Shown: piece after piece, positions 2,431-17,635 of the stretch
Numbering within the stretch: the stretch's first letter is position 1
How the letters are laid out: each line of letters begins with the position of its first letter
IMG/VR virus record: IMGVR_UViG_2565956716_000004
Direction: 5' to 3' (one strand)
DNA: 19,202 nucleotides
Origin: a virus
Taxonomy: Duplodnaviria > Heunggongvirae > Uroviricota > Caudoviricetes
Notes under the pieces: generated by a model
Databases searched by the model: none
What the model was told of the DNA's origin: nothing
Seen by the model: the letters and a program-made list of their open reading frames with translations, nothing else
Program-made: the position numbers and the translations under genes

Positions 2431-2901
2431 GTTAAGGTTAAATTAATTATAAAAAAATATATTATAATTCCATCTTCGCATTAAATTTTAACCTTTAATC
2501 TCCACACGGAACAAGTTGCATAGGTGACTATATTAAGAAAACTTATAACCACCAAAAAGATTTGCTTTGCAAGCAAAAACAGTGACCATTGACTCTAAGA
2601 AAATTCCGATCTATTGTTAGTGTCATCAAAGTTACTTAACAGTATTCCGAAATGAAAATACAAAGCAAGCTAATTGTCTTATTAAACATTATCATTGCAT
2701 TTATATTATTTGAGCTTTTAGCTCAAAAATTTGGTTTGAGTACATTATTTTAAAGCAAGATAAACAATATCGGGCACTCTAGTTTTTATAATTAACAATT
2801 AAACGCCCATAAAATGTTATTTACTTTTCTTCGCTATTGTCATATCTTAATATAGTGGCTTACGCCACTCTACTTTCATCATATTTTGTACGTTTATGTA
2901 C

Positions 2902-2932
2902 TCGCCATGAAGCTCTTTCATGGCGATTTTTT
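2902..2932 (+). terminator. Rho-independent terminator (plus strand)
   Basis: Perfect 10-bp stem tcgccatgaa (2902-2911) / ttcatggcga (2917-2926), 5-nt loop, followed by tttttt (2927-2932). Confidence 0.5.
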
Positions 2933-3018
2933 ATTCTTAATCCAAGAACATACTCCCTACCTATAGAAAAATCACTTTTTGAACAAAAGAATAACGTATT
3001 TAGGTAATCATTACGAAT

Positions 3019-3600
3019 TTACCCTATAGGTGCTACTGGCCATTCAATATCCGGTGCAGTTGTTGTATTAACACGGTTCAGCAACACCCGATACTTCTTC
3101 CAGGCTTCCAGCAACGAGATTTCTTCCTCCGTTGCAATTTCCAGATCTGCAGCATCCTGAAGCGGCGCAATATGCTCACTGGCTACCTGCATCAGGTTGT
3201 TTTTTGTTTCTTCCGCCTCCCGGATCCGGAACAGTTTTTCTGCTTCCGTATCCTTCACCCAGGCTGTGCCGTTCCACTTCTGATATTCCCCTTCCGGCGA
3301 TAACCAGGTGACATTTTCCGGTAACGAGCCAAGTTCAGAAATAAATAACGCGTCGCCGGAAGCCACGTCATAGACGGTTTTTCCCCGATGATCTTCAACG
3401 AGATGCCACGATGCCTCATCACTGTTGAAAACAGCCACAAAGCCAGCCGGAATATCTGGCGGTGCAATATCGGTACTGTTTGCTGGCAGACCTGTATGAG
3501 GCGGAATATATGCGTCACCTTCACCAATAAATTCATTAGTTCCGGCCAGCAGATTATAAATTTTTATGGTCCGTGGTTGTTCACTCATTCTGAATGCCAT
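3019..3600 (-). CDS. tfa: Tail fibre assembly protein (lambda Tfa-like)
   Basis: 193-aa product beginning [24 protein letters not shown] and ending [12 protein letters not shown], near-identical to lambda Tfa as I recall it. Its ATG (3598-3600) overlaps the stop of the upstream stf ORF in a TAATG arrangement, as in lambda. Confidence 0.9.
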
Positions 3601-5297
3601 TATGCAAGCCTCACAATATAGTTAAATGCGATGTTTTTGACGGTGTTTTCCGCGTTACCAGCAGCGTTAACGGTGATGGTGTGTCCATGTGAACCAATCG
3701 CAACGGAGTGCGTGTGTGCACCAATACCGACAGTATGTGCGTGTGCACCTGCAGATGCTGCTGTGCCGGACAGTGAGTGGCTATGGTTACCATCTGTACT
3801 GGTATTAGCTAACGCCCCCGTAGACATACCTACTGAGCCTTGTACACCCCAGGTATTTTGACCTGAGCTTGTATAACCATATTGATAAGTATCTTTAAAA
3901 ACACTGGGGTTAAATCGACGGCCATCTCTATGGCTGTGATTACCAGCTGCATTCGTGCTGCCACTTAAACTATGGGTATGCGCACCAGTGTTATTCGTGG
4001 ATTTAGTGCCGTAATCAAACGACGATGTGGTTTTCGTCCCCAAATCAGTACTGGATGCGCTGGCGCTGTGGGTATGCGATTTTATGCCGTCCTGTTCCTG
4101 AGACAATACGGCACGACCACTGGCGGGCTTGCCCTTAATCGTCCAGCCACGCATATCAGGGATCACGCCTGACGGATAAGCGGCTGCAAGTTTCGGGTAG
4201 GCAGATTTGTCAAAAGTCTGCCCCTGCATCAGGGCATAACCAGACGGAACGGTATCTGATGGCCACGGGATTGGTGCGCCGACTGGGTAGCTTTCTGGTG
4301 GAAGATTTTTCGAGGTATAAACTTCTGCCCAGTCTTCCTCAAAACCATAACCGTCTCTTGAAGAACGGTAGAACAGACCACCATTTCTGTAATGCGCCTT
4401 CATCTGCAAGGTCCGGCAACTTCCGACTCCGGTATAGAAGTTAACCAGAATATAGCTGTCGCCAGAGCGGGTGACATTATAAGCGCCTGATTCGGCATTC
4501 CAGGGAACGCCACCATCCGCATCGGCATATGTATCCGTTGCCCTTCTGGCAAAAGCAGCCACATGCGCGGCGGTTAAAGTAATATCTTTGGAACCATCAA
4601 ACTCAACACCAGAAACCCGTCTTGGCGTTTGCAGCTTTGTTGCTGTTAATGCATTACCGTTCAGACTTGCGGACAGTTTGGTTCCAATAACCAGTTCGCC
4701 GGTTGCGTTATCAATAGCAAACGGTCTTAATGTATTCCAGCCACCATAAACATCACCTTGATTGGTAAGCAGCAGGTAAGTTTTAGCGCCATCATTACGC
4801 CATAATGCCCCATACTCCCCACCTATCATTCGAATCTGATTACCACCACGCGCTACAATTTCGTCTGTGGCAAAAAGTTTTTTGCACGACAAGTTATCGT
4901 TAACGATTAATGAATGAGACTCATAAAAACCACGCCCACTCTTAAAATCAAGGATAACGTCCGCCGCGATACATTCAGTCGCCGGATTTGTTGCCCCAAA
5001 CTTATAGGTCGTATCATTAACAACGAGATCAGCACCAGGTGCGGATATTGACAGGCCATCTTCGATAAACGCAAAAACAGGGAAAGCAGCGCCATCAACA
5101 TAGAACACAGAGCGCAAATCATCGCCCTTATTACTCATCATTATTGAGTGGATGGCTCGTTCATTGTTTTGATATTGCCAGAACATTCCATAAGCATAAC
5201 GCCCCCTGTCAGTCCAGCCACCAGGCATAACAAATCCGTTATTCGAGCAACCCACCAGCGATATCAGCAGGAACAGGCAGATCACAGGTTTTTTCAC
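3600..5297 (-). CDS. stf: Chimeric ORF: lipoprotein signal at the Rz1 (o-spanin) position fused in frame to a side-tail-fibre (Stf) C-terminal region
   Basis: C-terminal ~250 aa carry lambda-Stf-type motifs ([60 protein letters not shown], HxH repeats GAHTHS/GNHSHS/GAHAHT, ending [11 protein letters not shown]). The N-terminus [18 protein letters not shown] is a lipobox signal starting with GTG at 5297, in the +1 frame inside the 3' end of Rz. The true start and the fusion junction are not resolved. Confidence 0.7.
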
Positions 5298-5562
5298 GGC
5301 GGAGAATCTCCCGGTATTCGATTACGGTTTTTTCGGTGCTGGTGTCGATCAGGGAGTTAAGACTGTTGGCATGTTCTGCAACCTGATTGAATCGATTGAA
5401 GTTGAATGCCTGGGTGGCGATTACCTGCCCCAGCATAGAGTTGTCACTTCGCAGAACGTCGTTATCGCTCTGAAGATTACTGGCGTAAGAGCAACTCTTG
5501 ACGAGAGCGACCGAAAGGCCAGCAATAACGACAACGCCTATAAGATCCGGATTAATTTTCAT
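5239..5562 (-). CDS. Rz-like i-spanin (inner-membrane spanin subunit)
   Basis: ATG at 5560-5562 overlaps the endolysin TGA (5559-5561) as ATGA. Product [21 protein letters not shown] has an N-terminal transmembrane helix then a helical region. Position immediately after the endolysin. The supplied longer ORF (to 5655) is probably an over-extension. Confidence 0.6.
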
Positions 5563-6101
5563 TGCTCCAGCCCCCAGCACGCCAGTGCGCTTTCCTGATC
5601 GCGCCGCTCGACCTGCCCATAACAGCCATTCTTCTGCCCTTTTGTCAGGCGGCAATCACGCCCACCATCTTTTATCCACCAGCGAATCGCCTCGCATGCC
5701 CCCTTACGATCATCGGCATTCAGCCGCTTATAAAACGTCGACGGGAAACACTTACCGGGGCCAATGTTATAGGGACAAAATGACGCTATACCCGCTTTCT
5801 GTGGTTCGGTCAGTGGCACTTTAATATTGCGCTCCACCCATGCCAGCGCCTTATCCCGTTCAATGGCGTTAACCTGGTCGCATTTTTCCTTCGACAGTTT
5901 CATACCGGGAAAAACGGGTTTTCCATCCACCACCGTGGCACCCCGACAGATGGTCCAGATGCCGGAACCATCGCGGTATGCCGTTGTGTGGTTACCTTCT
6001 TTTTCATTCAGAAACTGGTCGAGAATATCAGGCGCAGGCGCACCGACGGCAATCAGTGCCAGAACGGCAGCCGACAGGCCGTATCTGATTTTTACGTTCA
6101 T
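5559..6101 (-). CDS. SAR endolysin, T4-type lysozyme (GH24), RrrD/RrrQ/phage-21 R family
   Basis: 180-aa product MNVKIRYGLSAAVLALIAVGAPAP (signal-anchor-release-like N-terminus) followed by EGNHTTAYRDGSGIWTICRGAT (E-D-T catalytic arrangement of T4 lysozyme family). Closely matches my memory of E. coli prophage lysozyme RrrD. No obvious Shine-Dalgarno upstream of the ATG at 6101. Confidence 0.9.
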   Translation of the reverse strand: MNVKIRYGLSAAVLALIAVGAPAPDILDQFLNEKEGNHTTAYRDGSGIWTICRGATVVDGKPVFPGMKLSKEKCDQVNAIERDKALAWVERNIKVPLTEPQKAGIASFCPYNIGPGKCFPSTFYKRLNADDRKGACEAIRWWIKDGGRDCRLTKGQKNGCYGQVERRDQESALACWGLEQ

Positions 6102-6206
6102 GGATTTTTATCAGGATTTATCGGTTTCTGAACCCTGGATATGTTTATCTGTCCCGGCCTGTTGAATCAGGCAAGGAATAGTTAAATACAATAGAGAGGA
6201 TTGTTT

Positions 6207-6479
6207 ATGGACAATAGCACCATTTCTCTACAGGAGTTGCTCGACTGCATTTCCAAGCTTCGGGATGATGTAAATGCCCTTACTGTCGCATTTTCATATC
6301 TGGCATTCTCAATTCCCAAGGAACAAATGCAACCAACACTGGCATCGCTCCAGCTTGAATCACTCAACCCCAAATGGTCCCAGCAACAACAAAATTCTTT
6401 CAAGTGGCTGGCGATATTACTGGAAGAAAAATATGCTGGTGAAATTACCATTTCGGCGGAGTCTTCAGAGAACCAGTAA
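6207..6479 (+). CDS. Hypothetical protein (90 aa) encoded antisense within the lysis cassette
   Basis: ATG at 6207 with AGAGGA (6195-6200) 6 nt upstream, TAA at 6477-6479. Helical-looking product MDNSTISLQELLDCISKLRDDVNALTVAF. Overlaps the 3' end of the ydfR-like gene by 35 nt convergently. Confidence 0.45.
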   Translation: MDNSTISLQELLDCISKLRDDVNALTVAFSYLAFSIPKEQMQPTLASLQLESLNPKWSQQQQNSFKWLAILLEEKYAGEITISAESSENQ

Positions 6480-6789
6480 TTCTTCCCGGTAGCTTTCCTT
6501 TGTAGGTTATCCACACATTCTGCGCCTCTAAAATTATGGGGCGCTTTTCCGGCGACAGCTCATCCCCTTCACATAACCCGGCAGCAACATCCAGGAAGAC
6601 CTGTCTGATGCTCCTTCTGGCTGCTGCCTCATAAAACTCCAGCGCGGCACCTTCAACACGGTCCAGCGAGATGTCCAGGTCAAAAATTTCACCGTCAAAG
6701 CGTTCTTTGTCCCGTAACGCTAAAGTTACCGTAACTTTATTCTCAAAATTGCGGATCCCTTTCACAATCAGTTCATATTTTTGAGTCAT
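6445..6789 (-). CDS. ydfR: YdfR-like (DUF1327) phage protein located between holin and endolysin
   Basis: Product MTQKYELIVKGIRNFENKVTVTLALRDKERFDGEIFDLDISLDRVEGAALEFYEAAARRS matches my memory of Qin YdfR over the N-terminal ~70 aa. The C-terminal ~40 aa appear divergent. Confidence 0.65.
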   Translation of the reverse strand: MTQKYELIVKGIRNFENKVTVTLALRDKERFDGEIFDLDISLDRVEGAALEFYEAAARRSIRQVFLDVAAGLCEGDELSPEKRPIILEAQNVWITYKGKLPGRITGSLKTPPKW

Positions 6790-6793
6790 TGAA

Positions 6794-7009
6794 TTACTCT
6801 CCCCGTGCAGCCTTACGCTTGTCTTCTTTAATCTTGAAATAAAGGTTTGTCAGGTACGTCAGCAGGCCAAATACCAGGCTACCCAGCACACCTATTGCTG
6901 CCCACTGTGAGGGCGTGACTTTATCGAGCAGCTGTAAAAACCAGTAGCCAGCACTGCCTGCGGAGGTGCCGTAGGCAATGCCTGTTGAAATTTTGTCCAT
7001 GGATTTCAT
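6794..7009 (-). CDS. Class II pinholin, phage 21 S / EssD-EssQ family
   Basis: 71-aa product [71 protein letters not shown], near-identical to S21-71 as I recall it, including the dual-start MKSM motif. ATG at 7007-7009. The supplied ORF extension to 7066 is rejected. Confidence 0.88.
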
Positions 7010-7110
7010 AGCCTCACCCCCGCACGGAACGGATGGCATAGTTATTATGTGTAGGCTTCCAGACACATCAATCGGAGCCTTAATTGATATATATGCTGGA
7101 GACGATGCAA

Positions 7111-7135
7111 TATAAAAAGCTCGCCGTAGCGAGCT
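7111..7135 (-). terminator. Rho-independent terminator (minus strand) between the lipoprotein moron and the holin
   Basis: Stem agctcgc (7118-7124) / gcgagct (7129-7135), loop cgta. On the minus strand the hairpin is followed by a U-run (plus-strand A-run 7114-7118). Confidence 0.45.
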
Positions 7136-7260
7136 AATAAAATGTATTTCTCTGATATTATGTTTATTTGTATTAGCTCAGACTTGACATCACAGGTTTC
7201 GTATATAGAACATCATCAAATCTGTCAGTTTGCTATGAATGAGATATAGTAATTGAAGAG

Positions 7261-7656
7261 CTAACCTCGCATGTCAAAGCCAGATTTCTGAAAATCTCTG
7301 TAGACTTCCGGATTGTTGAAGGCCGGAAATTTGGCTTTATGAGCTGCGGACTTTATCGCTTCGCAATAGGCTTTATCACCGTTACTGGTAGATATTTTTA
7401 ACGCCGTGCCATCCTGAGAGAATTCCATATGCAACCTGCATTTTTTCCCTTTCCAGTTATGCGGCTCATCAAGTTTGGCATTAATTGCAGCTCTGATTCC
7501 CCGCGCTTGCGCCCCCCATTCATCCTGATCATCCCAGCGTCCTGAACTGCAACTACCTGTAGCAGTAGTTTTGTGGCAATCTGAAGGGTGTAAAGGTGTG
7601 CATCCCGCAACAAAACCGACCCAAAAAGTCAACATAACGATTTTCTTTAATCCCAC
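7261..7656 (-). CDS. Lipoprotein with divergent TolA C-terminal (domain III)-like fold
   Basis: GTG at 7654-7656 with GAGGAG 6 nt upstream. Signal peptide plus lipobox (FVAGC). C-terminal region KGKKCRLHMEFSQDGTALKISTSNGDKAYCEAIKSAAHKAKFPAFNNPEVYRDFQKSGFDMRG aligns by eye, at roughly 30% identity, to TolA domain III. Confidence 0.65.
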   Translation of the reverse strand: MGLKKIVMLTFWVGFVAGCTPLHPSDCHKTTATGSCSSGRWDDQDEWGAQARGIRAAINAKLDEPHNWKGKKCRLHMEFSQDGTALKISTSNGDKAYCEAIKSAAHKAKFPAFNNPEVYRDFQKSGFDMRG

Positions 7657-7806
7657 TTCTTGCTCCTCAATCCATTAAAATCTCAGCAATAGTAGTTGTT
7701 ACGTCCGCCACTGGCTCAGAGCTGACTATCCGCTAGATTTAGCTCAGTGCCGTAGTTGTGTCAGAACAAACCTAAGCCGAAACCGTTTATTACAAAACAA
7801 TAAATA

Positions 7807-8235
7807 TCAGGGTTTAAAATCCAGCACCCCATTTTGAAATACTTTATATACTTCCGGCGAAGGGGGGGCAGGTATATCAGCATTCTTTATCGCATTCATC
7901 GCTTCACGACATAAATCGAGGTCTCCACTTTCTCTTTTAACCTCCAGTAGAAGGCCATTCGGGGCCATATGCATTCTCAGTGTACACTCTTTTCCTGAAT
8001 ACTTACTCGCATCCCCGAACTGTTTTTCGATGGCGCTCTTGATTTGATGGGCATACAGACGGATATCCTCACTAACATCAGAAGTACGTTCAGATGAACT
8101 CACATACTGTGTCTCTATTGCTTTATCGGAGTAATATGATGTACGGTCATGATAATTTGTCGATACAGCATCAGTGCACCCGATAATAATCCCACTAATA
8201 ATCAACGTAAGAATTGATGCGCTACGAAAACCCAT
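7807..8235 (-). CDS. Lipoprotein carrying a TolA domain III homologue
   Basis: ATG at 8233-8235. Signal peptide with lipobox (IIIGC). The C-terminal 85 aa (DIRLYAHQIKSAIEKQFGDASKYSGKECTLRMHMAPNGLLLEVKRESGDLDLCREAMNAIKNADIPAPPSPEVYKVFQNGVLDFKP) align nearly residue-for-residue with the E. coli TolA C-terminus as I recall it (...YAGQIKSAIESKFYDASSYAGKTCTLRIKLAPDGMLLDIKPEGGDPALCQAALAAAKLAKIPKPPSQAVYEVFKNAPLDFKP). Confidence 0.8.
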   Translation of the reverse strand: MGFRSASILTLIISGIIIGCTDAVSTNYHDRTSYYSDKAIETQYVSSSERTSDVSEDIRLYAHQIKSAIEKQFGDASKYSGKECTLRMHMAPNGLLLEVKRESGDLDLCREAMNAIKNADIPAPPSPEVYKVFQNGVLDFKP

Positions 8236-8768
8236 TTTTCCTCACATATGTCATATAGTAAAGGATTATATATACCGTTGTTTTGGACGCTCAAACAGCG
8301 AATCAGATCAAATAAAACGCACATTTGTTAACATTTACACAAAGTCTGCGTGGGATATTCTGAAAGAATATCCATAATGTGGAGAGAATCTATTGAAGTG
8401 CATGGTGCCGGGGGCCTCCCGGTGAATTCAGTACCAGCACCTGAATCCACGATTATCCCATATACCTACTCGCTGATTGCCCCTCCGCACAGGGGGATTC
8501 ACCATGCCAGTTTCTTTTAACAAACTCCCCGCAAACCAGAGAACAGTCAACCGCCTGAATTGTGAAGTATTTAAAAATTTCTCCCGCTAACTGATACCCG
8601 GCTAACAGTCTGGCGTTTTCTTTTTCAGCAACGGGAAAGCAACAACTACCACACCCGCCACCAGCACACCGTCAGCCAGCACTGACATTATCCGGCTGCT
8701 GCAATGCCATTCACAAAAACAGTAAGCAATCACTTTTTACCGTAACAGGTGATAATCCAGATATGTAT

Positions 8769-9095
8769 CTACCCCAGATGAGTAATCCGAAGTTCATCCA
8801 TACCACAGGTCCTGGCTATTCTGTTGTACTCCTGAACAAGAGCAAATAATTCTGAATTAGCAACCATGAACTCATCGCAAACCCTCTGTATAGCATCACT
8901 ATTCAGAATAATAACGTCTCTTCCCGAAAGACGATCAGGAGCACAGAACAAAACTGTCAAACGGCTGAAGGCCTTTGCTCGTGCTGCATTGACTATATCA
9001 ATACGCTGCCTAAGGATGAAACACCCCGACGCCTCATCAATATTCACTCTACCCACACCATATGAATGATAAATATTTAATGCTGAAAAAACCAT
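8769..9095 (-). CDS. Hypothetical protein in the moron slot downstream of the prophage tRNAs
   Basis: ORF with ATG at 9093-9095 (alternative TTG at 9122), TAG at 8769-8771, no convincing Shine-Dalgarno. Product MVFSALNIYHSYGVGRVNIDEASGCFILRQRIDIVNAARAKAF. No family recognised. Confidence 0.35.
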   Translation of the reverse strand: MVFSALNIYHSYGVGRVNIDEASGCFILRQRIDIVNAARAKAFSRLTVLFCAPDRLSGRDVIILNSDAIQRVCDEFMVANSELFALVQEYNRIARTCGMDELRITHLG

Positions 9096-9232
9096 TAGAC
9101 CGTATAACAAACACTCAATCAATACTTAACAGAACTTTTATTTTTGACAAACATATAATGTTTTCAACAATATCCTGAGCCAGGTATATTCCAGTATAAG
9201 GCTCTGCCGGAAGGAATCTGGAAGAATGAATA

Positions 9233-9309
9233 TGGCGCGCTGTACTGGATTCGAACCAGTGACCGATTGCTTAGAAGGCAATTGCTCTGTCCGGCTGAGC
9301 TAACAACGC
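9233..9309 (-). tRNA. tRNA-Arg (anticodon UCU)
   Basis: Reverse complement folds as a cloverleaf: acceptor GCGTTGT/ACAGCGC, anticodon stem ATTGC/GCAAT with loop CTTCTAA (anticodon TCT), T-loop GGTTCGAATCC, 3' CCA encoded (9233-9235). Confidence 0.85.
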
Positions 9310-9343
9310 TGAATACCGATAATGGACCGCCATCGGGGACCCG

Positions 9344-9359
9344 CCCCCCCCCCCCCCCC
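9344..9359. repeat. Homopolymeric C16 tract (G16 on the minus strand) between the two tRNA genes
   Basis: Sixteen consecutive C at 9344-9359, read directly from the sequence. Confidence 0.9.
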
Positions 9360-9420
9360 GCACCAACAACCCTGTTATCGTGTCGTCTGCTCTTCCTGAT
9401 AAGCTCATGGCGGTTTGTGA

Positions 9421-9496
9421 TGGTGGCCCTTGCTGGATTTGAACCAGCGACCTGGCGATTATGAGTCGCTCGCTCTCACCACTGAACTAAAGGACC
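9421..9496 (-). tRNA. tRNA with anticodon CAU (Met/Ile2-lysidine type, ileZ-like)
   Basis: Reverse complement: acceptor GGTCCTT/AAGGGCC, anticodon loop CTCATAA (anticodon CAT), T-loop GGTTCAAATCC, 3' CCA encoded (9421-9423). Confidence 0.85.
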
Positions 9497-9531
9497 GGGA
9501 GCAGAATAATAACGGTCCGTAATTAATTCCG

Positions 9532-9559
9532 CAATAAAAAACCCGCTCGGTGGCGGGTT
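9532..9559 (-). terminator. tR'-like rho-independent terminator downstream of the late promoter
   Basis: Stem aacccgc (9540-9546) / gcgggtt (9553-9559), 6-nt loop. On the minus strand followed by UUUUUAUU (plus-strand A-run 9536-9540). Confidence 0.6.
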
Positions 9560-9606
9560 GTAGAAACTCTTCTAACGTCAGGTATAAAAAGCCCATCTTT
9601 ATGACG

Positions 9607-9634
9607 AATTTACCACAGATTCCGGAAAAATCAA
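9607..9634 (-). promoter_or_regulatory. PR'-like late promoter immediately downstream of Q
   Basis: On the minus strand: -35 TTGATT (9629-9634), 16-nt spacer, extended -10 TGGTAAATT (9607-9615). Lies between the Q stop (9640) and the terminator, as for lambda PR'/qut/tR'. Confidence 0.45.
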
Positions 9635-9639
9635 CCTTG

Positions 9640-10461
9640 TTACCTAGTTACCTTTTTTAACTGCCGCTCAGCCCATGCTTCTTCAATATCAAACCGGGTC
9701 ACCAGCGCATCATAGAATTTCTTAACTGTTTTTTCCCATGACGCGCGTGTTATCTGGTTTGTCACCTCGCATATAGCATTAAATGCCTCCGTTGATGGTA
9801 GTCTTTCATAGCCACGACCACCACAACGCTGGCAGTCTCTGATAACAGGCATACCACGTTTTACCGACTCTTCACGGTGAATGGCGACACCACGCCCACG
9901 GCAATCCTTACAGGCGGTGGAAACCTCACCCTTTCCGCCACACTCCGGACAGGCAACTTTTACCACCTCCCTGACTTTTTTCCATTCTTCCCAGTAAGAC
10001 GGATACACACCTTTCGTACACTTTGCCCATACCGGCGGCTTACCATCCGGATACTGGACCTTGTTTGTAAAAACTACGCTTTCAATAAATTTTTCCCCAT
10101 AGCAACAAGGGCACTGCTTTTTACTCGCTGCGCTGCGGGCATAATCCTCAAAAGCGTACGAAGCCATAATGCGCATCACTAACGGTTTTATTTCTGCCGG
10201 AAGTTTTCTCAACGCCGCCACACGATCGCACCGACTGAGTGCATAATCTGCCAGTAATTCTGTTGCCCGCGCCCTGTCATTCATACTGATGCCCATTTTC
10301 CCCAGGAACGCAGAAAACCCCATCTCAGCCCGATTCTGTGTCATGCCCTGCGCGGCCATCACATCAGTGATACTCAGCGCATCTTTTGACGTTGAGGCCG
10401 ATGCATCGGTCAGGCAAGGGGATTTTGGGGAGTAGTATTTCGGTAAATCTTCCAGTTTCAT
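9640..10461 (-). CDS. Late-gene antiterminator Q (phage 82/21-type, QuuQ-like)
   Basis: 273-aa product with three DnaJ-type CxxCxGxG zinc-finger motifs (CPECGGKG, CKDCRGRG, CQRCGGRG). ATG overlaps the rusA TGA as ATGA. Position upstream of PR' and the lysis genes. Confidence 0.8.
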   Translation of the reverse strand: MKLEDLPKYYSPKSPCLTDASASTSKDALSITDVMAAQGMTQNRAEMGFSAFLGKMGISMNDRARATELLADYALSRCDRVAALRKLPAEIKPLVMRIMASYAFEDYARSAASKKQCPCCYGEKFIESVVFTNKVQYPDGKPPVWAKCTKGVYPSYWEEWKKVREVVKVACPECGGKGEVSTACKDCRGRGVAIHREESVKRGMPVIRDCQRCGGRGYERLPSTEAFNAICEVTNQITRASWEKTVKKFYDALVTRFDIEEAWAERQLKKVTR

Positions 10462-10832
10462 TTTTTGACCTGCTCTTCATGCATTATGGGGTAAATCTTC
10501 ACCCCCATACGTCCACCAGATACTGGCTGACCACGAACGATATTGATTTCATCAAACTGCTCATCGTCCATTAACACTCCCGCATGCGTCAGCGCATCCA
10601 GCGGTGCTTTAAGGATATTGTCCAGGTCGCGACGACGCTTATCCGGTGGCTCTGCAATCACCTTTATCGCCAGCCTTCCGGACAGGCTTAATTTCAGCCG
10701 CTGCTGGCGAACAATAAGCGCCACAGCCCGGCGATAACGCTTTCCCTCCTCCGAGATAAAATATGTGCTGCCACGGCGTCGCCAGTAAGTGTTCACCGTC
10801 GGCGGGTAAGGTAAAACCAAATCTATGAGCAT
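10458..10832 (-). CDS. rusA: Holliday-junction resolvase RusA
   Basis: 124-aa product with a RusA signature (PPDKRRRDLDNILKAPLDALTHAGVLMDDEQ). Located in the nin region immediately upstream of Q. Confidence 0.85.
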   Translation of the reverse strand: MLIDLVLPYPPTVNTYWRRRGSTYFISEEGKRYRRAVALIVRQQRLKLSLSGRLAIKVIAEPPDKRRRDLDNILKAPLDALTHAGVLMDDEQFDEINIVRGQPVSGGRMGVKIYPIMHEEQVKK

Positions 10833-10844
10833 CAGTCACCTCTT

Positions 10845-11894
10845 TTACCCAAGCACGCCAGTTGCAAAGGCGTGATCAAGAAAACGAAAGATTAAATCAA
10901 CCTGAGAACCATGCTTTTCTTCGAACGCCAGCGGATCCGCATGAAGCTCGTTGTGATGCTCCCGACACAGCGGTAGCGTGAAAATATCGTGAGATTTTGT
11001 CCCCATTCCGCCCTGACCATGACCAATCAGGTGATGGGGATCGTCGGCTGGCTTACCACAACACGCACACGGCTGTGTCTTCACCCAGCGTGTGTATTTC
11101 TCGTTAACCCAGCGGCGACGTTTAGGTCGTTTCATAAAAGATTCCGGAGACTCAGGATCAACGGCAATGCTTACCACCGTCTTTTCCTGTAGTGGGTGTT
11201 GTTCCTGGTGGGCGTGAGGCAACAGTGCAAGATTTTTTGTGCGCTGTTTCAGTATGCTGGTGGCGGTCTGCTCTCCCGGTACGATGTCGCTTTCACGGTA
11301 CATTGAGCGGATTTTTTCCGCACGCAACCCCAGCGAACGACGTAATACCGCTTCCGGTAGCGCGTCCGCCACCTGATTGCGGACCGCCCACCAGGATAAT
11401 TCAGCCAGAGATAATTCACGCTCCTGCGTACCGCTTATTGCGTGACCGATGACGTCAATCATCCATGCTGACAGGTTTTGATGAGCAACTTGCTCGAGTG
11501 ATTCGGATGTCTGGTCACGCAGCTGGTTGTCGCAGTGCCAGCACAACACCATTGCGCCGGTACCATAACGGTGAATGACGGTTTCGCTGTGATGATAATC
11601 GCCGTGTGGCCACTGGCAGGATTTAATATGGCGCAACAGCCAGTCAGACAATGCACCAGCACCACCAGCAGCACGAATCACCCGTGCGTTACTGAAAAAC
11701 GGCAGCAATGTTTTGTCTTCCACCAGCGGCTGGCGAGCGGCAGGAACGACCCCGGACGGCAGATTACGCATGCTTTTCGGTTCCGGCTCCACCAGTAACC
11801 GGGTATTGTGGAATACCGGCATGGATTCACGGCCCGGCTTAACGATCACCAGCCCGAGTTCCGGTACCAGAACAGGTCGAAGTAATACCCGCAC
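10845..11894 (-). CDS. ydfU: DUF968 family phage protein (YdfU-like) with C-terminal HNH-like Cys/His motifs
   Basis: 349-aa ORF, GTG at 11892-11894 with GGAGG 4 nt upstream. C-terminus CACCGKPADDPHHLIGHGQGGMGTKSHDIFTLPLCREHHNELH. Same length and position as Qin YdfU as I recall it. Confidence 0.7.
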   Translation of the reverse strand: MRVLLRPVLVPELGLVIVKPGRESMPVFHNTRLLVEPEPKSMRNLPSGVVPAARQPLVEDKTLLPFFSNARVIRAAGGAGALSDWLLRHIKSCQWPHGDYHHSETVIHRYGTGAMVLCWHCDNQLRDQTSESLEQVAHQNLSAWMIDVIGHAISGTQERELSLAELSWWAVRNQVADALPEAVLRRSLGLRAEKIRSMYRESDIVPGEQTATSILKQRTKNLALLPHAHQEQHPLQEKTVVSIAVDPESPESFMKRPKRRRWVNEKYTRWVKTQPCACCGKPADDPHHLIGHGQGGMGTKSHDIFTLPLCREHHNELHADPLAFEEKHGSQVDLIFRFLDHAFATGVLG

Positions 11895-11895
11895 G

Positions 11896-12174
11896 TTACC
11901 TCCAGATGCGTTGCTGGAATGTGTGGGACGGACGCGGTGGGCGTTCGGAGTAAGGCAATCTGACTGAGATTATCCAGTGACGGTAGTCGAGGCTAAGGGC
12001 TTTTTTAACCTCGTATCCGCGCCTGCGGTAACACTGAATTATCCATTCAGCCTGCTCTTCAGTGCATGGTGGATGCTGGAACCAGTCCGATTTGAATGCA
12101 TGAAAACGCCGTCCGCACCTGCTGGCAAAGACGGCAGAATCATCAGAATTGTGTAATTTGGTATCGTGCGCCAT
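11896..12174 (-). CDS. Hypothetical phage protein (92 aa from the internal ATG), translationally coupled to the DUF968 gene
   Basis: ORF stops at 11896-11898, 1 nt before the DUF968 start. Start taken as the Met of MAHDTKLHNSDD. The longer ORF to 12285 is less likely. No family recognised. Confidence 0.4.
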   Translation of the reverse strand: MAHDTKLHNSDDSAVFASRCGRRFHAFKSDWFQHPPCTEEQAEWIIQCYRRRGYEVKKALSLDYRHWIISVRLPYSERPPRPSHTFQQRIWR

Positions 12175-12540
12175 CGGTTGTCTCTGCTGGCGCAGCAGGT
12201 GCCAGTTGTTCAGGCTGGCGTATAAAGTATAAATAAACTGGTTCCAGTGTAAAGCCCCTACATTAATGGAATAAAAGTCAAACAACAGATTGTTGGGATA
12301 AACACAACGCTTATTATTAAAAGCGATTAGATAAATTAAATTTTAATGTTATGCAATTTTACCAGATCACCATAACATCTCGTTTGAAACCACCAAAACA
12401 ACAACCATATCAATTTTGATTATGTTAAAGTGAGTAAATATGGAAAACAACAAATCTGCACATTACGCTCCTTTTTTATCTGTGATACTTTTTGTTTTAT
12501 GCTGTGTGTGGGCATTATTTTTATAAAAATATTTACAGAT

Positions 12541-12564
12541 AAAATAAACCCGCCGAAGCGGGTT
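12541..12564 (-). terminator. Rho-independent terminator downstream of hok (minus strand)
   Basis: Stem aacccgc (12547-12553) / gcgggtt (12558-12564), loop cgaa. On the minus strand followed by a U-run (plus-strand aaaata 12541-12546). Confidence 0.5.
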
Positions 12565-12632
12565 AAGTGCGGGTGCATTGAGGATGCCTGACACATCAGA
12601 GGTGGCGAGGGATTTCTCCCTCGCCTGGTCTC

Positions 12633-12788
12633 TTACTCCTCAGGTTCGTAAGCTGTGAAGACAGCGACCTCCGTCTGGCCGGTTCGGAGTCGTACCTCGC
12701 AGAGGTCTTTCCTCGTTACCAGTGCCGTCACTATGACGGTTAAACAGATGACGATCAGGGCGATTAACATCGCCTTTTGCTGCTTCAT
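12633..12788 (-). CDS. hok: Hok-family type I toxin (HokD/RelF-like)
   Basis: 51-aa product MKQQKAMLIALIVICLTVIVTALVTRKDLCEVRLRTGQTEVAVFTAYEPEE, near-identical to E. coli HokD as I recall it. ATG at 12786-12788. The upstream in-frame extension to 12845 is an ORF-finder artefact or mok-like overlap. Confidence 0.88.
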   Translation of the reverse strand: MKQQKAMLIALIVICLTVIVTALVTRKDLCEVRLRTGQTEVAVFTAYEPEE

Positions 12789-13405
12789 AGCCTGCTTCTC
12801 CTTGCCTTTCGGCACGTAAGAGGCTAACCTACATGTGTCTAGCATGAAATTGGCCTCAGATTAATGTTAAGCGTCTTGCAGGACGCGTAATGTTAACTGG
12901 GGCTTTTCTCTATCTGCCTTTGGTGTTCATGCCTGAGGCAGATAGCCTCAAGCACCCGCAGCAATTCTACTTAACTCACGTCACCTCGCCAATATAAAAT
13001 CAATCAGAAAGGCGATCCGTAAGAACAACAGCAAGACAATAAATTGCCATTACAGCCGCAATAGCTAGCGCACATTTGAGAACCAGCACGACAACCTCCT
13101 GTATTGGACGTACACCAGTCCTGATAAATATGAGGCTGTCTCATCATTGATTCAATATAACTATTGGGTATAGTTTCTGTGATTTTGTTCTGTAGAAATG
13201 GAACACAACAACCAGTCACCACCAGCACTTCTTTAAATACGCCAAGTCCGACGCAAGCTAACCTTCTAGTCCGCTTTGAGCGATCTGTAGACATTGCTAG
13301 CAGCCTTCTGTGTGAATTCTCAGGGAGCAGGTCGGCATAGCATCACGTTGAGGCTCTTACCCTACTTGTTGACACCAACCCTAACTCCACAGACTGATTC
13401 ATAAA

Positions 13406-14407
13406 TTAGTAATCTGCGTATTTCGCACTTTTCAGAAATGCTTTCATATTTTCATTAGGTCGCTCAATTTCGAAGTTACTTCCATATAACTCTTGTAATT
13501 TTGGCCATAACTTACTTAATAACCCTCTCCTGCGATAAAATGGATGTATCCAAACGGTAGATAGGTACGGAGAATTTGCATTTGAATTGTTTATTGTGAC
13601 CAGCCCAACTAAACATTGTCGATAACCACTATTATCCATTGATTGTATTTCTTCGACGAATGGATACGCGATTACATCAGTCCAACCATGATCGGTTGTA
13701 TCCCATTGCATTCCGTCATGACATTCCTTCGACTGATAGCGGCGTAAAGCTACACACGCGAGCTTTTGCCAATCTGGAGAATTAATTGTGATCTCTTCAT
13801 CGTATGACGCGCCTATTGGAGCGGGTATTGGTCTGATTAATCCAGCATGGCATTCATCATAGAACTTCATGTTTCCCTCAGAAACGTTGTGTACGTTGGG
13901 TTGCTCCATGTGTGCGCCATTCAAAAATAGCTCTGATAGTAGTGTATCTACACTGTAATCTTTATTGATTATTGTCGGCTTAGAGTTTTTCTTATTAAGG
14001 CCGCGAGTAACGATTTTTTGATCAATGTTAACAACATGGAATAATCCGTCGGGGAGACTAGCGAACCACGATGGGGCATCGGACCAGAATAGCATGCCTT
14101 TTGTACTTCTTAAGAGTTTAATTAAGTTAATACAAGCTTCTTCACTAGTCTTGCCGTTGATGCGAAGTATGTTAGGACTAAAGTAATATTCATCCATATC
14201 AGGGAATGCAGCTTCGCAAAACTCCTGTACATAATTTAGCACCTGGATTCTACAGAGATCATCATAGCTGGTAATAACTAAGGGGATATCTTCATTACTA
14301 TTATGATTATCAATAATGCAATCTATAGCGAGACTTACTGCTTTGCGTATCACTTCAGTTGAATCTAACGACTCTAAAAATTTTGTCTTTCGTGTGCGAA
14401 TATCCAT
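13406..14407 (-). CDS. Cargo gene B: 333-aa protein with an unassigned N-terminal region and a GNAT-like acetyltransferase motif near the C-terminus
   Basis: ATG at 14405-14407, TAA at 13406-13408, 15 nt downstream of gene A. Residues ~285-301 (VWIHPFYRRRGLLSKLW) resemble GNAT motif A (RimI-type V-x-P-x-x-Q/R-R-R-G-x-G/A). AT-richer than the flanking phage genes. Confidence 0.65.
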   Translation of the reverse strand: MDIRTRKTKFLESLDSTEVIRKAVSLAIDCIIDNHNSNEDIPLVITSYDDLCRIQVLNYVQEFCEAAFPDMDEYYFSPNILRINGKTSEEACINLIKLLRSTKGMLFWSDAPSWFASLPDGLFHVVNIDQKIVTRGLNKKNSKPTIINKDYSVDTLLSELFLNGAHMEQPNVHNVSEGNMKFYDECHAGLIRPIPAPIGASYDEEITINSPDWQKLACVALRRYQSKECHDGMQWDTTDHGWTDVIAYPFVEEIQSMDNSGYRQCLVGLVTINNSNANSPYLSTVWIHPFYRRRGLLSKLWPKLQELYGSNFEIERPNENMKAFLKSAKYADY

Positions 14408-14422
14408 GTATGACCTGCGCTA

Positions 14423-15385
14423 TTAAAATTCATGAATGAACGGTTTGTCATCTGGTTGCAAAATGGTGGTTTTATTCGTTGCTACATTTAAACTGTTGTA
14501 GAGCATAATTGCCAGGTTCGATGCATTTTCAATCAGCGTTTCAAGATCCTGGTCTGTAATCACTACGAGGTTCCCTTCTTTATCCTTTCCACCACGATGC
14601 ACTAAGTGATTTCGATTGAGGGTTGCCAATTCAATAGCTTCTATCGGACAGTCTTTTTGTACTTTTATATCGAATGTAGCTTCATAGCGGTCGATTACCT
14701 TTTTAGTGCTATGCCAGCTTGCACTGATCAAGTGTTCCTTGATTGACCTGATTAGCTCTCCCCTAATTTTCTCGATGGGTTCACCCTTGAAAGGCAACGC
14801 AGCAATATCTTTGCTTACTTTAAATTCAGTCTTACCTTTTTCTATACAATTGGCTATGTAGACATCATCTTTCTCTATAGAATTAATGAATAGCTCAACA
14901 TAAAGCGTTTCCAAAGCTGTAATAACATTCGTGTAGAGCAAACTAAGCAAGTGGTTTTTTTGCTGTTGTTCAGTTTTATCTTTTGCAAGTTTTTTTATTT
15001 TATCGATATTATCAATGAATTTTAAATACGGATTACCGGAAGACGTTACAGCGTCGTAGATATCATCATCGTACCAATCATCTATATTATTTGAGTTTCC
15101 AGACCAGTCAAAACATTGTGTTTGTAATTCATCTACTAATTCCTCAATATACTCAGATTTAACATATTGACCGAAGATGGATTGTAGTTCTTCGCTCGCA
15201 TCATACGGCCCGCCATATATGTAAGCATAGCCACCTTCTCTACTTTCATACGGACAAGCATTTGCCGGATCTTCAAAGTTTTCAAAGAACCAGTTTTTCA
15301 TTACTTCGAGTTGATCTTTTTTGCTTATGTATTTTAAAGATTTTAGTGGAACTTTCTTTCCATTAACCTCGAAAACAATTTTCAC
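14423..15385 (-). CDS. Cargo gene A: 321-aa protein with a HEPN-like Rx4H motif (RNHLVH, ~residues 259-264)
   Basis: Start assigned to GTG (15383-15385) with AGGGAG (15395-15400) 9 nt upstream. The supplied ORF extension to 15535 overlaps the promoter and is rejected. AT-rich: sampled 60-nt windows are about 32-40% GC by hand count, against about 55% in the adjacent replication gene. Confidence 0.65.
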   Translation of the reverse strand: MKIVFEVNGKKVPLKSLKYISKKDQLEVMKNWFFENFEDPANACPYESREGGYAYIYGGPYDASEELQSIFGQYVKSEYIEELVDELQTQCFDWSGNSNNIDDWYDDDIYDAVTSSGNPYLKFIDNIDKIKKLAKDKTEQQQKNHLLSLLYTNVITALETLYVELFINSIEKDDVYIANCIEKGKTEFKVSKDIAALPFKGEPIEKIRGELIRSIKEHLISASWHSTKKVIDRYEATFDIKVQKDCPIEAIELATLNRNHLVHRGGKDKEGNLVVITDQDLETLIENASNLAIMLYNSLNVATNKTTILQPDDKPFIHEF

Positions 15386-15418
15386 GATGTAACGCTCCCT
15401 TGTATCAATTGCGCAACT

Positions 15419-15427
15419 ATTATACCA
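15419..15427 (-). promoter_or_regulatory. Extended -10 promoter element (TGGTATAAT) for the cargo operon
   Basis: Minus strand reads TGGTATAAT about 30 nt upstream of the GTG start. No strong -35, which is consistent with extended -10 promoters. Confidence 0.4.
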
Positions 15428-15576
15428 CAGCGAAATACAGGGCATAACCTGCCTCCTTAAACTAACATACCATGAGCCAGCAATGTCCGCTATTGGCACA
15501 AAGCGGACAACCACGCTAGCTCTACCCTGTGCCACAAAATGTCAATTTGCATCTGAACTAATGCACTTTAATCTCG

Positions 15577-15999
15577 TCACTTCAATAAATACCGAACATC
15601 ACCCTGATAAAACGACAATATGCGCTGCATAACTTCACTCTTCCGGCACTCGCGACAGATTATGTTCTGACGCCTGTCGTAGCGACGTATTTCTCCGTCA
15701 GGTAATGACCAGATAAGGTCCGGATCAACCGCAGATGGTTTCTTCAGCTTTGCCCTTGAGAGCTTTTTACGGGCATTTTGCCAGTCCTTACGCGCCTGTT
15801 CAGACGGGAATAACCCGTAACCAGAGTTGCATACATCGCCGCTGGCAACCAGCTCTCTTGCGAGAACGCTCATCAGATATCTTGTCGCACCTGTCTTGAC
15901 TTCCAGTTGCCGTAACGTCTCACGCCCACTCTGGCGTACGAGTTCAACAACCTGTCCTTTAATTTTTTCCCGCTCTTCTTGTGTAAAAACTTTTGCCAC
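15577..15999 (-). CDS. Hypothetical phage protein (140 aa) downstream of the replication initiator gene
   Basis: GTG at 15997-15999 with AGGAGG 4-5 nt upstream. Basic product (MAKVFTQEEREKIKGQVVELVRQSGRETLRQLEVKTGATRYL, Cys pair CRECRK). No family recognised. Confidence 0.55.
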   Translation of the reverse strand: MAKVFTQEEREKIKGQVVELVRQSGRETLRQLEVKTGATRYLMSVLARELVASGDVCNSGYGLFPSEQARKDWQNARKKLSRAKLKKPSAVDPDLIWSLPDGEIRRYDRRQNIICRECRKSEVMQRILSFYQGDVRYLLK

Positions 16000-16039
16000 A
16001 AGCCCTCCTGAAAATTACCTCATGACCAGAAATTAACAC

Positions 16040-17110
16040 TTACCCCCTGAAGCCCGGCGGAATTTCGTTATCCGGTTCAGAAATATGATTCACACAACGC
16101 TGGTTGTTCGTGCCGCTTACCGGGAGCAACCAGGGGTTCTCAAAATTCCGGTCCGGTCCAAAAAACGTCGTCGCTCGCTGAACAAATTCCGTTCCCGTTT
16201 TCCCGGTAGCCGCCAAGTATCTTGCGTAACGCCTCACGCCATCCAGCATGGCCTCTGGTGGCACCCCCTCGCGTAATCTGGCCTTCCAGGCACTGAAAGC
16301 GGATTTCTTCGGGTTTGCCCCAGCACGCAACGGGTACTCCCGCCAGACCTGTTCGAACACATCCGGATAATCCACTCGTCCCACAGACTGCCCGGTGTTT
16401 TCCGGGACTACCCGATCGGCTTCCCGCTGAATGGCGGAATCGGCTTCGGGCTGCTGCAGTTGGTGTGATTGCTCCGGCCTTGCGGTCATCACCTGCTGCA
16501 CAGCGCCCGAATCGGCTTTCAGCGCATACGCTGAATCGGCTTCCGGTGTCGTGCCTGCTGGCTGACCAAGATTGACGGTCTGAACATCCCCTGCCTGGTT
16601 CGTGGCGTTTTTTACGCCATGGACCATAGTGTTTTGATCTTCTTGATCTGTATCTTTATCTGTATCTTTATCTGTCGTGACTCGTCGTGACATGTGCGTG
16701 ACATTTCGTGACGCGCCGTGACAATCGCCATTTTGTTCCCGCTTTCTTTCCCTCTCTCGCTGCGCCCTCTTGCGCTCTGCAGGAGATTTTGCGGTTTGCG
16801 AAATATTGCCGTTGTCCTCTTTAAGCACCTGGCGTTTTTCCCATCCAGTGATTAAATCACCATCAAGTACCCGCCCCTGCATCGTCTGCAAAATTGAATC
16901 AATTACCTCTTCTGTCACGTCGAGCGCACTTGCCAAATCTTCTGTCGTGACATCAATGTGACCTCGCGTGACATTTCGTGACGCGCTCACCAGGAGGTGG
17001 ATATACACTGCCATCACTGTTGCAATTGGCTGCCCTGACACCCTGGCAATTGTTCGCCACTTAGGGTCATTTGGCATGTCATGCCATAATCTGAGCCAGG
17101 CGTTAGCCAT
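16040..17110 (-). CDS. Phage replication initiation protein (replisome-organiser type; origin iterons embedded in the gene)
   Basis: ATG at 17108-17110 with GAGGTGA upstream (the supplied ORF starts at GTG 17116). The C-terminal region DVFEQVWREYPLRAGANPKKSAFSAWKARL resembles the conserved C-terminus of phage replication organiser proteins. Two CGTGAC iteron arrays lie inside the coding sequence, like lambda O/ori. Confidence 0.65.
   Translation of the reverse strand: MANAWLRLWHDMPNDPKWRTIARVSGQPIATVMAVYIHLLVSASRNVTRGHIDVTTEDLASALDVTEEVIDSILQTMQGRVLDGDLITGWEKRQVLKEDNGNISQTAKSPAERKRAQRERERKREQNGDCHGASRNVTHMSRRVTTDKDTDKDTDQEDQNTMVHGVKNATNQAGDVQTVNLGQPAGTTPEADSAYALKADSGAVQQVMTARPEQSHQLQQPEADSAIQREADRVVPENTGQSVGRVDYPDVFEQVWREYPLRAGANPKKSAFSAWKARLREGVPPEAMLDGVRRYARYLAATGKTGTEFVQRATTFFGPDRNFENPWLLPVSGTNNQRCVNHISEPDNEIPPGFRG
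16666..16712. repeat. Iteron array 1: five CGTGAC repeats at 10-11 bp spacing (candidate replication origin)
   Basis: CGTGAC at 16666, 16676, 16687, 16697 and 16707, flanked on the low-coordinate side by the tandem AT-rich repeat atctttatctgt x2 (16636-16660). Confidence 0.7.
16946..16982. repeat. Iteron array 2: four (C/T)GTGAC repeats at 10-11 bp spacing
   Basis: CGTGAC at 16946, TGTGAC at 16957, CGTGAC at 16967 and 16977; an inverted copy GTCACG at 16914-16919. The motif block cgtgacatttcgtgacgcgc is shared with array 1. Confidence 0.65.
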
Positions 17111-17181
17111 ACTCACCTCTTCTGATACCGAATCTTTTTACTCACGAGTTGCCGGAAGCGATTCGATATGGCTATTGTCAG

Positions 17182-17499
17182 TCAATGTACTGCCACAGCA
17201 TTTCCTGCCGGGCCACCACGGTTCATCTGATTGAAACCGGCGATTGCCACTGCGACAAAATCATCAGCGTCTCTCACCAGTCGCTCCCGCGTCTCCACCA
17301 GCTCCCGAAAATAAGCTGAACTGTGGCTGCGCATTCTGGCCACCAGCAAAGGTGGCATTGCCTTTTCGATCGCTGGTAACAACGCCTGAATTTTTTCAAC
17401 TGCATCAGGGGTGTCTTTCTCTATCCAGCGGAAAATTTTCTGGGTATTGCGAGCCAGGGCTTCCGGATGGCTGTCGTCGTACAGTTCAGGAAACGTCAT
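17182..17499 (-). CDS. Hypothetical early-operon protein (105 aa) upstream of the replication gene
   Basis: ATG at 17497-17499 (the supplied ORF starts at TTG 17505). Helical-looking product MTFPELYDDSHPEALARNTQKIFRWIEKDTPDAVEKIQ. No helix-turn-helix or other family recognised. Confidence 0.45.
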   Translation of the reverse strand: MTFPELYDDSHPEALARNTQKIFRWIEKDTPDAVEKIQALLPAIEKAMPPLLVARMRSHSSAYFRELVETRERLVRDADDFVAVAIAGFNQMNRGGPAGNAVAVH

Positions 17500-17574
17500 A
17501 CCCAACTCAAAATAAGCCTGGGTTATCTGGCAAAAACTGATCCCGAGTCAGGCTGATTCTTAATGTTCAACTGT

Positions 17575-17606
17575 CGCCGGTTGTGACTGGTATTCTGCAA
17601 CCGGCG
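17575..17606. promoter_or_regulatory. 9-bp perfect inverted repeat with 14-bp spacer in the divergent xis / early-operon intergenic region (candidate operator)
   Basis: cgccggttg (17575-17583) and caaccggcg (17598-17606). No flanking T-run on either strand, so unlikely to be an intrinsic terminator. Confidence 0.35.
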
Positions 17607-17635
17607 CTCGTCTGATGTAAGAGATAAAGAAATCG

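Follow-up and report, generated by a model that had tools for sequence, protein, structure and literature searches.

A deletion scar joining an Rz1 lipoprotein signal to a tail-fibre fragment in a Qin-site lambdoid prophage of Escherichia coli

The window (the whole stretch of DNA that was analysed, 19,202 nucleotides) carries a prophage element located between rspB/integrase and a 5'-truncated ydfJ, where the K-12 cryptic prophage Qin has its attachment site. The genes of interest are all encoded on the minus strand, where a late lysis cassette is followed directly by one open reading frame (ORF) of 565 aa and then by tfa. This arrangement had been described in the original prediction from the nucleotide sequence and was recovered here, with the ORF at 3600-5297 (minus strand) and its GTG start at 5297. 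Two details were added to that description: Rz itself is truncated (107 of 178 aa), and ydfR lies between the holin and endolysin genes. The features are as follows, in the order of transcription.

6794..7009, minus strand: holin of the phage 21 S / EssD type, the first gene of the late lysis cassette (Pfam Phage_holin_2_1, E=1.2e-35; PGAP essD)
6445..6789, minus strand: ydfR (DUF1327), between the holin and the endolysin (Pfam DUF1327, E=7.6e-43; PGAP YdfR family protein)
5559..6101, minus strand: endolysin, a lysozyme of the rrrQ type (Pfam Phage_lysozyme, E=1e-23; WP_001101168.1)
5239..5562, minus strand: truncated i-spanin gene Rz, 107 of 178 codons (phrog_214; PGAP pseudogene missing C-terminus)
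3600..5297, minus strand: chimeric ORF of 565 codons, Rz1 signal plus the C-terminal half of Stf (ORF list, lipobox rule)
5241..5297, minus strand: remnant of the embedded o-spanin gene Rz1, 19 codons with GTG start, signal peptide and lipobox (identity to intact Rz1, lipobox rule)
5240..5241, no strand assigned: deletion junction, a 2-nt overlap (TA on the minus strand) common to both parental sequences (base-by-base comparison, megablast, three-way alignment)
3600..5240, minus strand: 3' part of stf, the last 546 codons and the stop (identity to OkiPb01681 stf; Pfam; PGAP pseudogene missing N-terminus)
3019..3600, minus strand: tfa, the tail fibre assembly chaperone gene, intact (Pfam Caudo_TAP, E=3e-42; PGAP tfaQ, WP_001593356.1)

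The PGAP annotation divides the region into two pseudogenes, at 5562-5242 ('hypothetical protein, missing C-terminus') and 5249-3600 ('tail fiber protein, missing N-terminus'). Neither the ORF list of the window nor the PGAP annotation contains a recombinase between tfa and ydfJ.

The chimeric ORF begins within the end of Rz. The Rz ATG is at 5562, 265 nt from the GTG at 5297, which places the GTG in the +1 frame of Rz and, as had been proposed, exactly where an Rz1 gene would start; the same GTG is present in the intact relatives mEp237 and CFSAN061769. The N-terminus of the encoded protein satisfies the PROSITE-type lipobox rule (K2, K3, Cys17 in LVGC, Ser at +2), and a pattern match found a positively charged n-region, a hydrophobic h-region and the lipobox consensus in the leader, as expected of a putative signal-peptidase-II substrate. 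Residues 1-19 are those of Rz1, and residues 20-565 are residues 587-1132 of the Stf encoded by OkiPb01681. At the codon level the join reads TGC-TCG-AAT / AAC-GGA-TTT, with Rz1 C17-S18-N19 followed by Stf N587-G-F, while the Rz frame reads GAA-TAA across the same point and terminates there, its stop codon TAA (5241-5239) arising at the junction. Four Pfam domains (Gp34_trimer, gp37_C, Collar, and Phage_fiber) were detected in the ORF, which matched phrog_295 with E=3e-151, and its residues 335-565 matched the receptor-binding tip of T4 gp37 (PDB 2xgf) with E=3e-85. Together with the Caudo_TAP match of the following gene, these hits agree with the predicted in-frame run into a lambda-Stf-type C-terminus with HxH repeats and then tfa.

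An in-frame join between Rz1 and stf is statistically unremarkable, because the upstream side offered two frames that overlap, those of Rz and Rz1. Among the possible phases at the join, 2/3 fuse either Rz or Rz1 to stf, and 1/3 fuses Rz1. The long open frame of the chimeric ORF is simply inherited from stf.

To assess what remains of the two spanins, we compared them with intact relatives. In mEp237 and CFSAN061769, a 48-aa Pro-rich o-spanin is encoded from the same GTG inside an Rz of 171-178 aa. The Rz1 remnant matches residues 1-19 of the intact 48-aa CFSAN061769 Rz1 without a difference and is close to the Rz1 of mEp237. The start and the lipobox of an o-spanin are retained, and, in line with the original prediction, the Pro-rich body is gone: 19 residues are kept against 48, only C17-S18-N19 of the mature protein is left, and the parental Rz1 sequence TRTVYVPAPCTPIPADLMKPMIVPLPPAQ is replaced by Stf sequence. 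The i-spanin, which in its full-length form has an N-terminal TMD and a complete periplasmic coiled-coil, is reduced to 107 of 178 residues. Pfam gave no match for the truncated Rz, and PHROGs identified it as an Rz-like spanin (phrog_214) covering profile positions 14-113 of 176, compared with 14-175 for the intact 178-aa parent.

The element thus resembles the lambdoid embedded Rz/Rz1 pairs (phrog_214, phrog_456; PMC5295617, PMC6139136) in its +1-frame Rz1 within Rz, its lipobox and its phrog_214-like Rz N-terminus, but differs from them in that Rz is without its C-terminal 71 residues and Rz1 without its whole Pro-rich mature domain. As these two defining features fail, the element is no longer a member of the spanin family. 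In lambda, nonsense mutations in Rz abolish lysis anywhere but in the last codon, and the Rz1 stretch rich in proline is essential (PMC5295617); from these mutant data the window spanin should be null, and spanin function would have been lost from the element.

The tail-fibre part was treated in the same way. The Stf remnant, which corresponds to residues 631-1176 in the numbering of the CFSAN061769 Stf, is 99.96% identical at the DNA level to stf of OkiPb01681, and residues 17-565 of the chimeric ORF share 99.3% protein identity with Stf of the phages PhiR34_1 and Kati. Like these lambdoid Stf proteins with a T4 gp37-type tip, the fragment has a collar, HxH repeats and the gp37-type receptor-binding tip at its C-terminus, with tfa directly downstream. 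In contrast to them, it is without the N-terminal 586 residues, including the 'prophage tail fiber N-terminal domain', by which the fibre is attached to the tail, and homology starts only at residue 587 of 1132 (OkiPb01681) or 631 of 1176 (CFSAN061769) of the full-length protein. Because the N-terminal domain is absent, the element does not encode a functional Stf.

To locate the two parental sequences, a 651-nt probe across the junction was searched against a phage collection. Probe positions 1-361 matched Rz regions (mEp237, 93%), positions 360-651 matched stf of Kati, ev099, mEp332, and PhiR34_1 at 100%, and megablast split the probe at query positions 360/361. Not one of the 50,697 phage records contained both halves contiguously. 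The fused N-terminal region is therefore not the normal, non-chimeric part of a protein family of intact phages that had been considered as the alternative to a deletion.

Bacterial genomes with an intact version of the region were then compared with the window. CFSAN061769 was found by a hybrid query that combined the 5' part of the window Rz with the 3' part of the mEp237 Rz, seeking genomes with an intact Rz, and a closer parent, OkiPb01681, emerged from the search with the chimeric ORF. In OkiPb01681 the rspB/ydfJ (Qin) site is likewise occupied by a prophage, in this case of full length, with flanks ~99.95% identical to the window, and most of its protein accessions are shared with the window's element, among them tfa (WP_001593356.1); the endolysin accession (WP_001101168.1) is common to the window and the full-length prophages. 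Window positions 2999-5241 are 99.96% identical to OkiPb01681 and positions 5237-17526 are 99.94% identical. At the junction, 22,605 bp present in OkiPb01681 are missing in the window. This extra DNA comprises the 3' ends of Rz/Rz1, a hypothetical gene (cos side), DUF1441/small terminase, the large terminase, the portal, a protease-capsid fusion, head-tail and tail genes, the tape measure, J, lom, and the first 1757 nt of stf. The CFSAN061769 prophage is likewise collinear, with flanks 98.6-99.0% identical and ~22.66 kb missing from the window.

Base by base, identity on the Rz side extends to 5240 and identity on the stf side begins at 5241, the two overlapping by TA, and the alignment suggested at the outset for finding the junction thus places it at 5241-5240. 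A 5-nt overlap in the BLAST result was an artefact of gapped extension; the base-by-base comparison gave 2 nt. As expected of a deletion pseudogene, the sequence on either side of the join follows that of an intact element in the same order, and the intact element has additional DNA between the two sides. At the level of sequence comparison, the collinear full-length prophages at the same site show that the packaging, head and tail genes were lost in a deletion of 22,605 bp that fused Rz1 to stf, with a cryptic prophage as the remainder, as had been proposed. One illegitimate-recombination event at the 2-bp overlap, from the middle of Rz/Rz1 to the middle of stf, excised the whole segment. It cut Rz to 107 of 178 aa and reduced Rz1 to its signal peptide plus three mature residues, the remaining 19 Rz1 codons falling by chance in phase with stf codon 587. 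No virion would be possible after such an event. The scar was very probably left by a recent deletion, accidental in nature, in a lambdoid prophage at the Qin site of E. coli, with the chimeric ORF as a by-product.

K-12 Qin is the closest described relative, and the element is another, independently decayed Qin-site prophage. The two occupy the same site between rspB and the truncated ydfJ and share the module order Q, holin, ydfR, endolysin, Rz/Rz1 ... stf, tfa; in Qin too the head/tail block is deleted and a C-terminal Stf fragment adjoins tfa, residues 62-320 of StfQ being 75% identical to residues 309-565 of the chimeric ORF. They differ in the scar itself. In Qin the upstream breakpoint lies in nohA (a small-terminase homologue), rzpQ/rzoQ are annotated as intact, the StfQ remnant has 320 aa, and pinQ is present, whereas in the window the breakpoint lies inside Rz/Rz1, the remnant has 546 aa and a lipoprotein signal, and there is no pin.

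To reveal the distribution of the scar, a 120-nt junction probe was searched in 5,426 complete E. coli genomes and was found 100% identical in 60 of them. The carriers include pig, human, poultry, pet and water isolates and the serogroups O177, O100 and O39, all of them H21. The window, a segment of an E. coli chromosome, shares 4.1 kb with E. coli MSHS 472 at 100% identity, and 57 further complete genomes come close to this. The exact 565-aa protein was found on 574 contigs in a large protein collection, labelled 'tail fiber protein' or 'hypothetical protein'. The identity of the junction in 60 genomes and its absence from phage records point to a single event, which is very recent in evolutionary terms, judging from the near-identity to the intact prophage of OkiPb01681.

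Roughly 53 of the 60 carriers keep the chimeric ORF intact, and its 1.7 kb show 0-1 SNP in most carriers. The ORF is interrupted by ISVsa5 in strain 2017.06.05CC and by IS3 in CUPS TF 6/1_01, carries a 1-nt frameshift in strains 571 and 774, and has lost its 3' end, together with the 5' end of tfa, through a secondary deletion in VE-T2. Elsewhere in the prophage, IS3 was found between ydfR and the endolysin gene in EC12, EC15 and EC18, and in xis in Res13-Lact-PEB01-20. There are at least four independent disruptions of the chimeric ORF (two IS insertions, the frameshift and the secondary deletion) among 60 near-identical carriers, a pattern that would be what neutral decay predicts. The 1.7-kb frame is still open simply for want of time in which it could have been closed. 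The chimeric ORF appears to be under no detectable selection, as judged from the disruption events only, since the sequences are too similar for dN/dS.

The expression of the ORF depends on its genomic context, in which a second scar was found at 17522-17526, with GTTAT microhomology and 5,335 bp missing relative to OkiPb01681. This deletion removed the 5' end of ydaT, cro, the LexA-family repressor, ydfA/B/C, dicB, ydfD, and the exonuclease gene. It is younger than the first, because only two genomes, MSHS 472 and OHT76-1, share its junction. Since it also removes the native promoters upstream of Q (9638-10459), Q-dependent late expression in the window genotype is probably not inducible. The carrier Res13-Lact-PEB01-20 keeps the immunity region, and most carriers probably keep the repressor/cro/Q circuitry (one carrier checked); in such carriers, induction could therefore lead to expression of the chimeric ORF along with the lysis genes.

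The late transcript of an intact lambdoid phage, antiterminated by Q, covers the lysis genes first, then the head and tail genes, and finally stf-tfa, and the gene order after the deletion would place the chimera and tfa directly behind the lysis genes in that transcript. If transcription of the late operon took place, the fibre fragment would be routed to Sec export and lipidated by virtue of the native Rz1 start. Exported in this way, with neither the tail-attachment half nor the cytoplasmic Tfa chaperone, the fragment would probably misfold. A promoter/terminator consensus scan of 2900-9700 was at chance level (14 promoters found vs 11.9 expected) and is uninformative for expression.

The fusion may be read instead as an exapted, selected protein, i.e., a functional outer-membrane lipoprotein that displays the receptor-binding tip and acts in superinfection exclusion or receptor masking. 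The N-terminus fits such a protein, with the native Rz1 start, a canonical lipobox and a Ser at +2 that predicts outer-membrane sorting. Rz1-type lipoproteins, however, occupy the inner leaflet of the outer membrane, facing away from an incoming phage. They are described as outer-membrane proteins that face the periplasm (PMC5295617), and a receptor-masking role is mechanistically awkward because of this orientation. The gp37-like tip is complete and tfa is kept, but the translation of Tfa has no signal peptide, so an exported fibre would be without its chaperone. The exact protein does occur on 574 contigs; the event is nonetheless so young (99.95% identity to the intact prophage) that an open frame needs no selection, and the ORF was independently inactivated at least four times among the 60 near-identical carriers. 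There is also no pin invertase and no dedicated promoter, the promoter scan being at chance.

A precedent exists in StfE2 of the cryptic prophage e14, an inversion product of PinQ/PinR that is reported to block T2 adsorption (PMC12529663). StfE2 is likewise a chimeric ORF in a cryptic prophage and includes the C-terminal part of a tail fibre. It differs in being short, in arising by reversible site-specific inversion and in having experimental support (PMC12529663), whereas the ORF in the window arose by an irreversible deletion, carries an export signal, is known from sequence alone and gives no sign of selection. A StfE2-type system goes with an adjacent Pin-family invertase and an invertible segment with inverted repeats, whereas in the window no recombinase lies between tfa and ydfJ; at the corresponding position pin is present in K-12 and PhiR34_1.

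Exaptation is accordingly given very little weight. The lipid-anchored receptor-binding protein suggested in the original prediction appears unlikely, and the evidence leans against a function, because the ORF is disrupted in carriers and the window has lost the immunity/early-promoter region upstream of Q. That the Rz1-signal::Stf-tip fusion is made when the late operon fires, exported, lipidated and stable enough to alter the envelope or phage adsorption seems very doubtful, and would be most plausible in carriers whose repressor/Q circuit is probably still present (one checked). Overall, it is quite improbable that the fusion does something, the small probability being kept because StfE2 of e14 is reported to block phage adsorption (PMC12529663).

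The Rz1 leader would be irrelevant if translation began at an internal start and yielded a cytoplasmic, Tfa-assisted Stf fragment like the annotated 320-aa StfQ of K-12. K-12 does annotate this N-terminally truncated protein beside a comparable scar, and the homology-based PGAP pseudogene begins at codon 17 of the chimeric ORF. At the in-frame ATG, GTG and TTG codons of the first 160 codons, however, no Shine-Dalgarno-like motif at usable spacing was found except for a weak one at the TTG of codon 61, whereas the Rz1 GTG, the start position in intact relatives, keeps its native translation context with GGGAG ~10 nt upstream. These motifs lend the internal start no support and leave it as improbable as exaptation. 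If the chimeric ORF is translated, the lipoprotein leader would be its likeliest N-terminus, because GGGAG precedes the Rz1 GTG and no comparable internal motif occurs in the first 160 codons.

A history without any deletion, in which recombination brought an stf-tfa module into a lysis-only element or faulty assembly produced the join, has a practically negligible probability and was rejected. Tail-fibre genes are well-known mosaics and the first 292 nt of the stf part are 100% identical to several unrelated phages, but the two flanks, which include tfa, the spacer downstream and the attachment side at ydfJ, are collinear with and 99.95% identical to one full-length same-site prophage, and the junction recurs in 60 genomes that were finished independently and on 574 contigs.

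As a recent deletion scar, the Rz1-stf join is a new example of a well-known pseudogene-forming process, and RefSeq/PGAP already flags it. For annotation it is a caution, since what GenBank lists on hundreds of contigs as a 'tail fiber protein' consists half of o-spanin signal, half of fibre, while RefSeq records two pseudogenes. The carriers document prophage decay at a single site as a dated succession of steps, which could serve to estimate decay rates, leading from the intact prophage to the loss of 22.6 kb of structural genes (60 genomes) and on to lineage-specific IS insertions, a frameshift and secondary deletions, with the 5.3-kb immunity loss in 2 genomes. A new biological question would arise only if the fusion were shown to be produced and to act; exported and lipidated, it would be a natural lipid-anchored receptor-binding protein whose exaptation from a prophage remnant has just begun.

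Apart from the Rz1-stf deletion (the 22,605-bp loss that joined the Rz1 lipoprotein signal in frame to the 3' part of stf), a second deletion scar was detected in the immunity region, affecting about 17180-17884.

17522-17526, second deletion junction, with a 5-nt microhomology (GTTAT)

Sequence comparison with the prophage of OkiPb01681, full-length and at the same site, showed that 5,335 bp are absent from the window, with loss of the ydaT 5' end, cro, the LexA-family repressor, ydfA/B/C, dicB, ydfD, and an exonuclease. The second junction was found in only two of the 5,426 genomes, MSHS 472 and OHT76-1, and this narrow distribution indicates that the deletion postdates the Rz1-stf deletion.

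The chimeric Rz1-signal/Stf ORF is inconsistently annotated by PGAP. In CUPS TF 6/1_01 (L013 401-1972) it is cut off by IS3, and the leftover piece, starting from the Rz1-derived GTG, is treated as a genuine gene product under the name 'tail fiber protein' (WP_416046289.1), whereas the ORF is called a pseudogene in other carriers of the junction.

The remaining features include three RNA family matches at the Rfam gathering level.

2569-2998, AT-rich segment of 430 bp between tfa and ydfJ
3059-3257, minus strand, IS009 (225 bits), within the tfa coding sequence
6207-6479, plus strand, 90-aa ORF antisense to the ydfR-endolysin interval
7261-7656, minus strand, tandem ORF 1, between the Q/tRNA region and holin
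7807-8235, minus strand, tandem ORF 2, between the Q/tRNA region and holin
8346-8536, minus strand, STnc100 sRNA (110 bits)
9233-9309 and 9421-9496, both minus strand, two tRNA genes a short way downstream of the antiterminator gene Q
12783-12957, minus strand, sok antitoxin RNA, adjoining hokD

The AT-rich segment contains a terminator-like hairpin (2902-2926, plus strand) and is shared with CFSAN061769, a second full-length comparator, but is missing in the otherwise near-identical OkiPb01681 prophage. No pin invertase was found in the tfa-ydfJ interval of the window, in contrast to the K-12 Qin prophage and phage PhiR34_1.

The antisense ORF is annotated by PGAP as a hypothetical protein (WP_001593363.1) in every related prophage inspected. 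The tRNA genes, positioned relative to Q as in Stx-type lambdoid phages, are one tRNA-Arg(TCT) and one with a CAT anticodon, assigned to Met by ARAGORN versus Ile by PGAP.

Both tandem ORFs, whose annotation is that of TolA C-terminal-domain proteins, have lipobox-like N-termini (…FVAGC in 7261-7656, …IIIGC in 7807-8235); according to PGAP, ORF 2 is a pseudogene in MSHS 472 and intact in OkiPb01681. They are candidate moron genes that may act on Tol-dependent colicin or phage entry.
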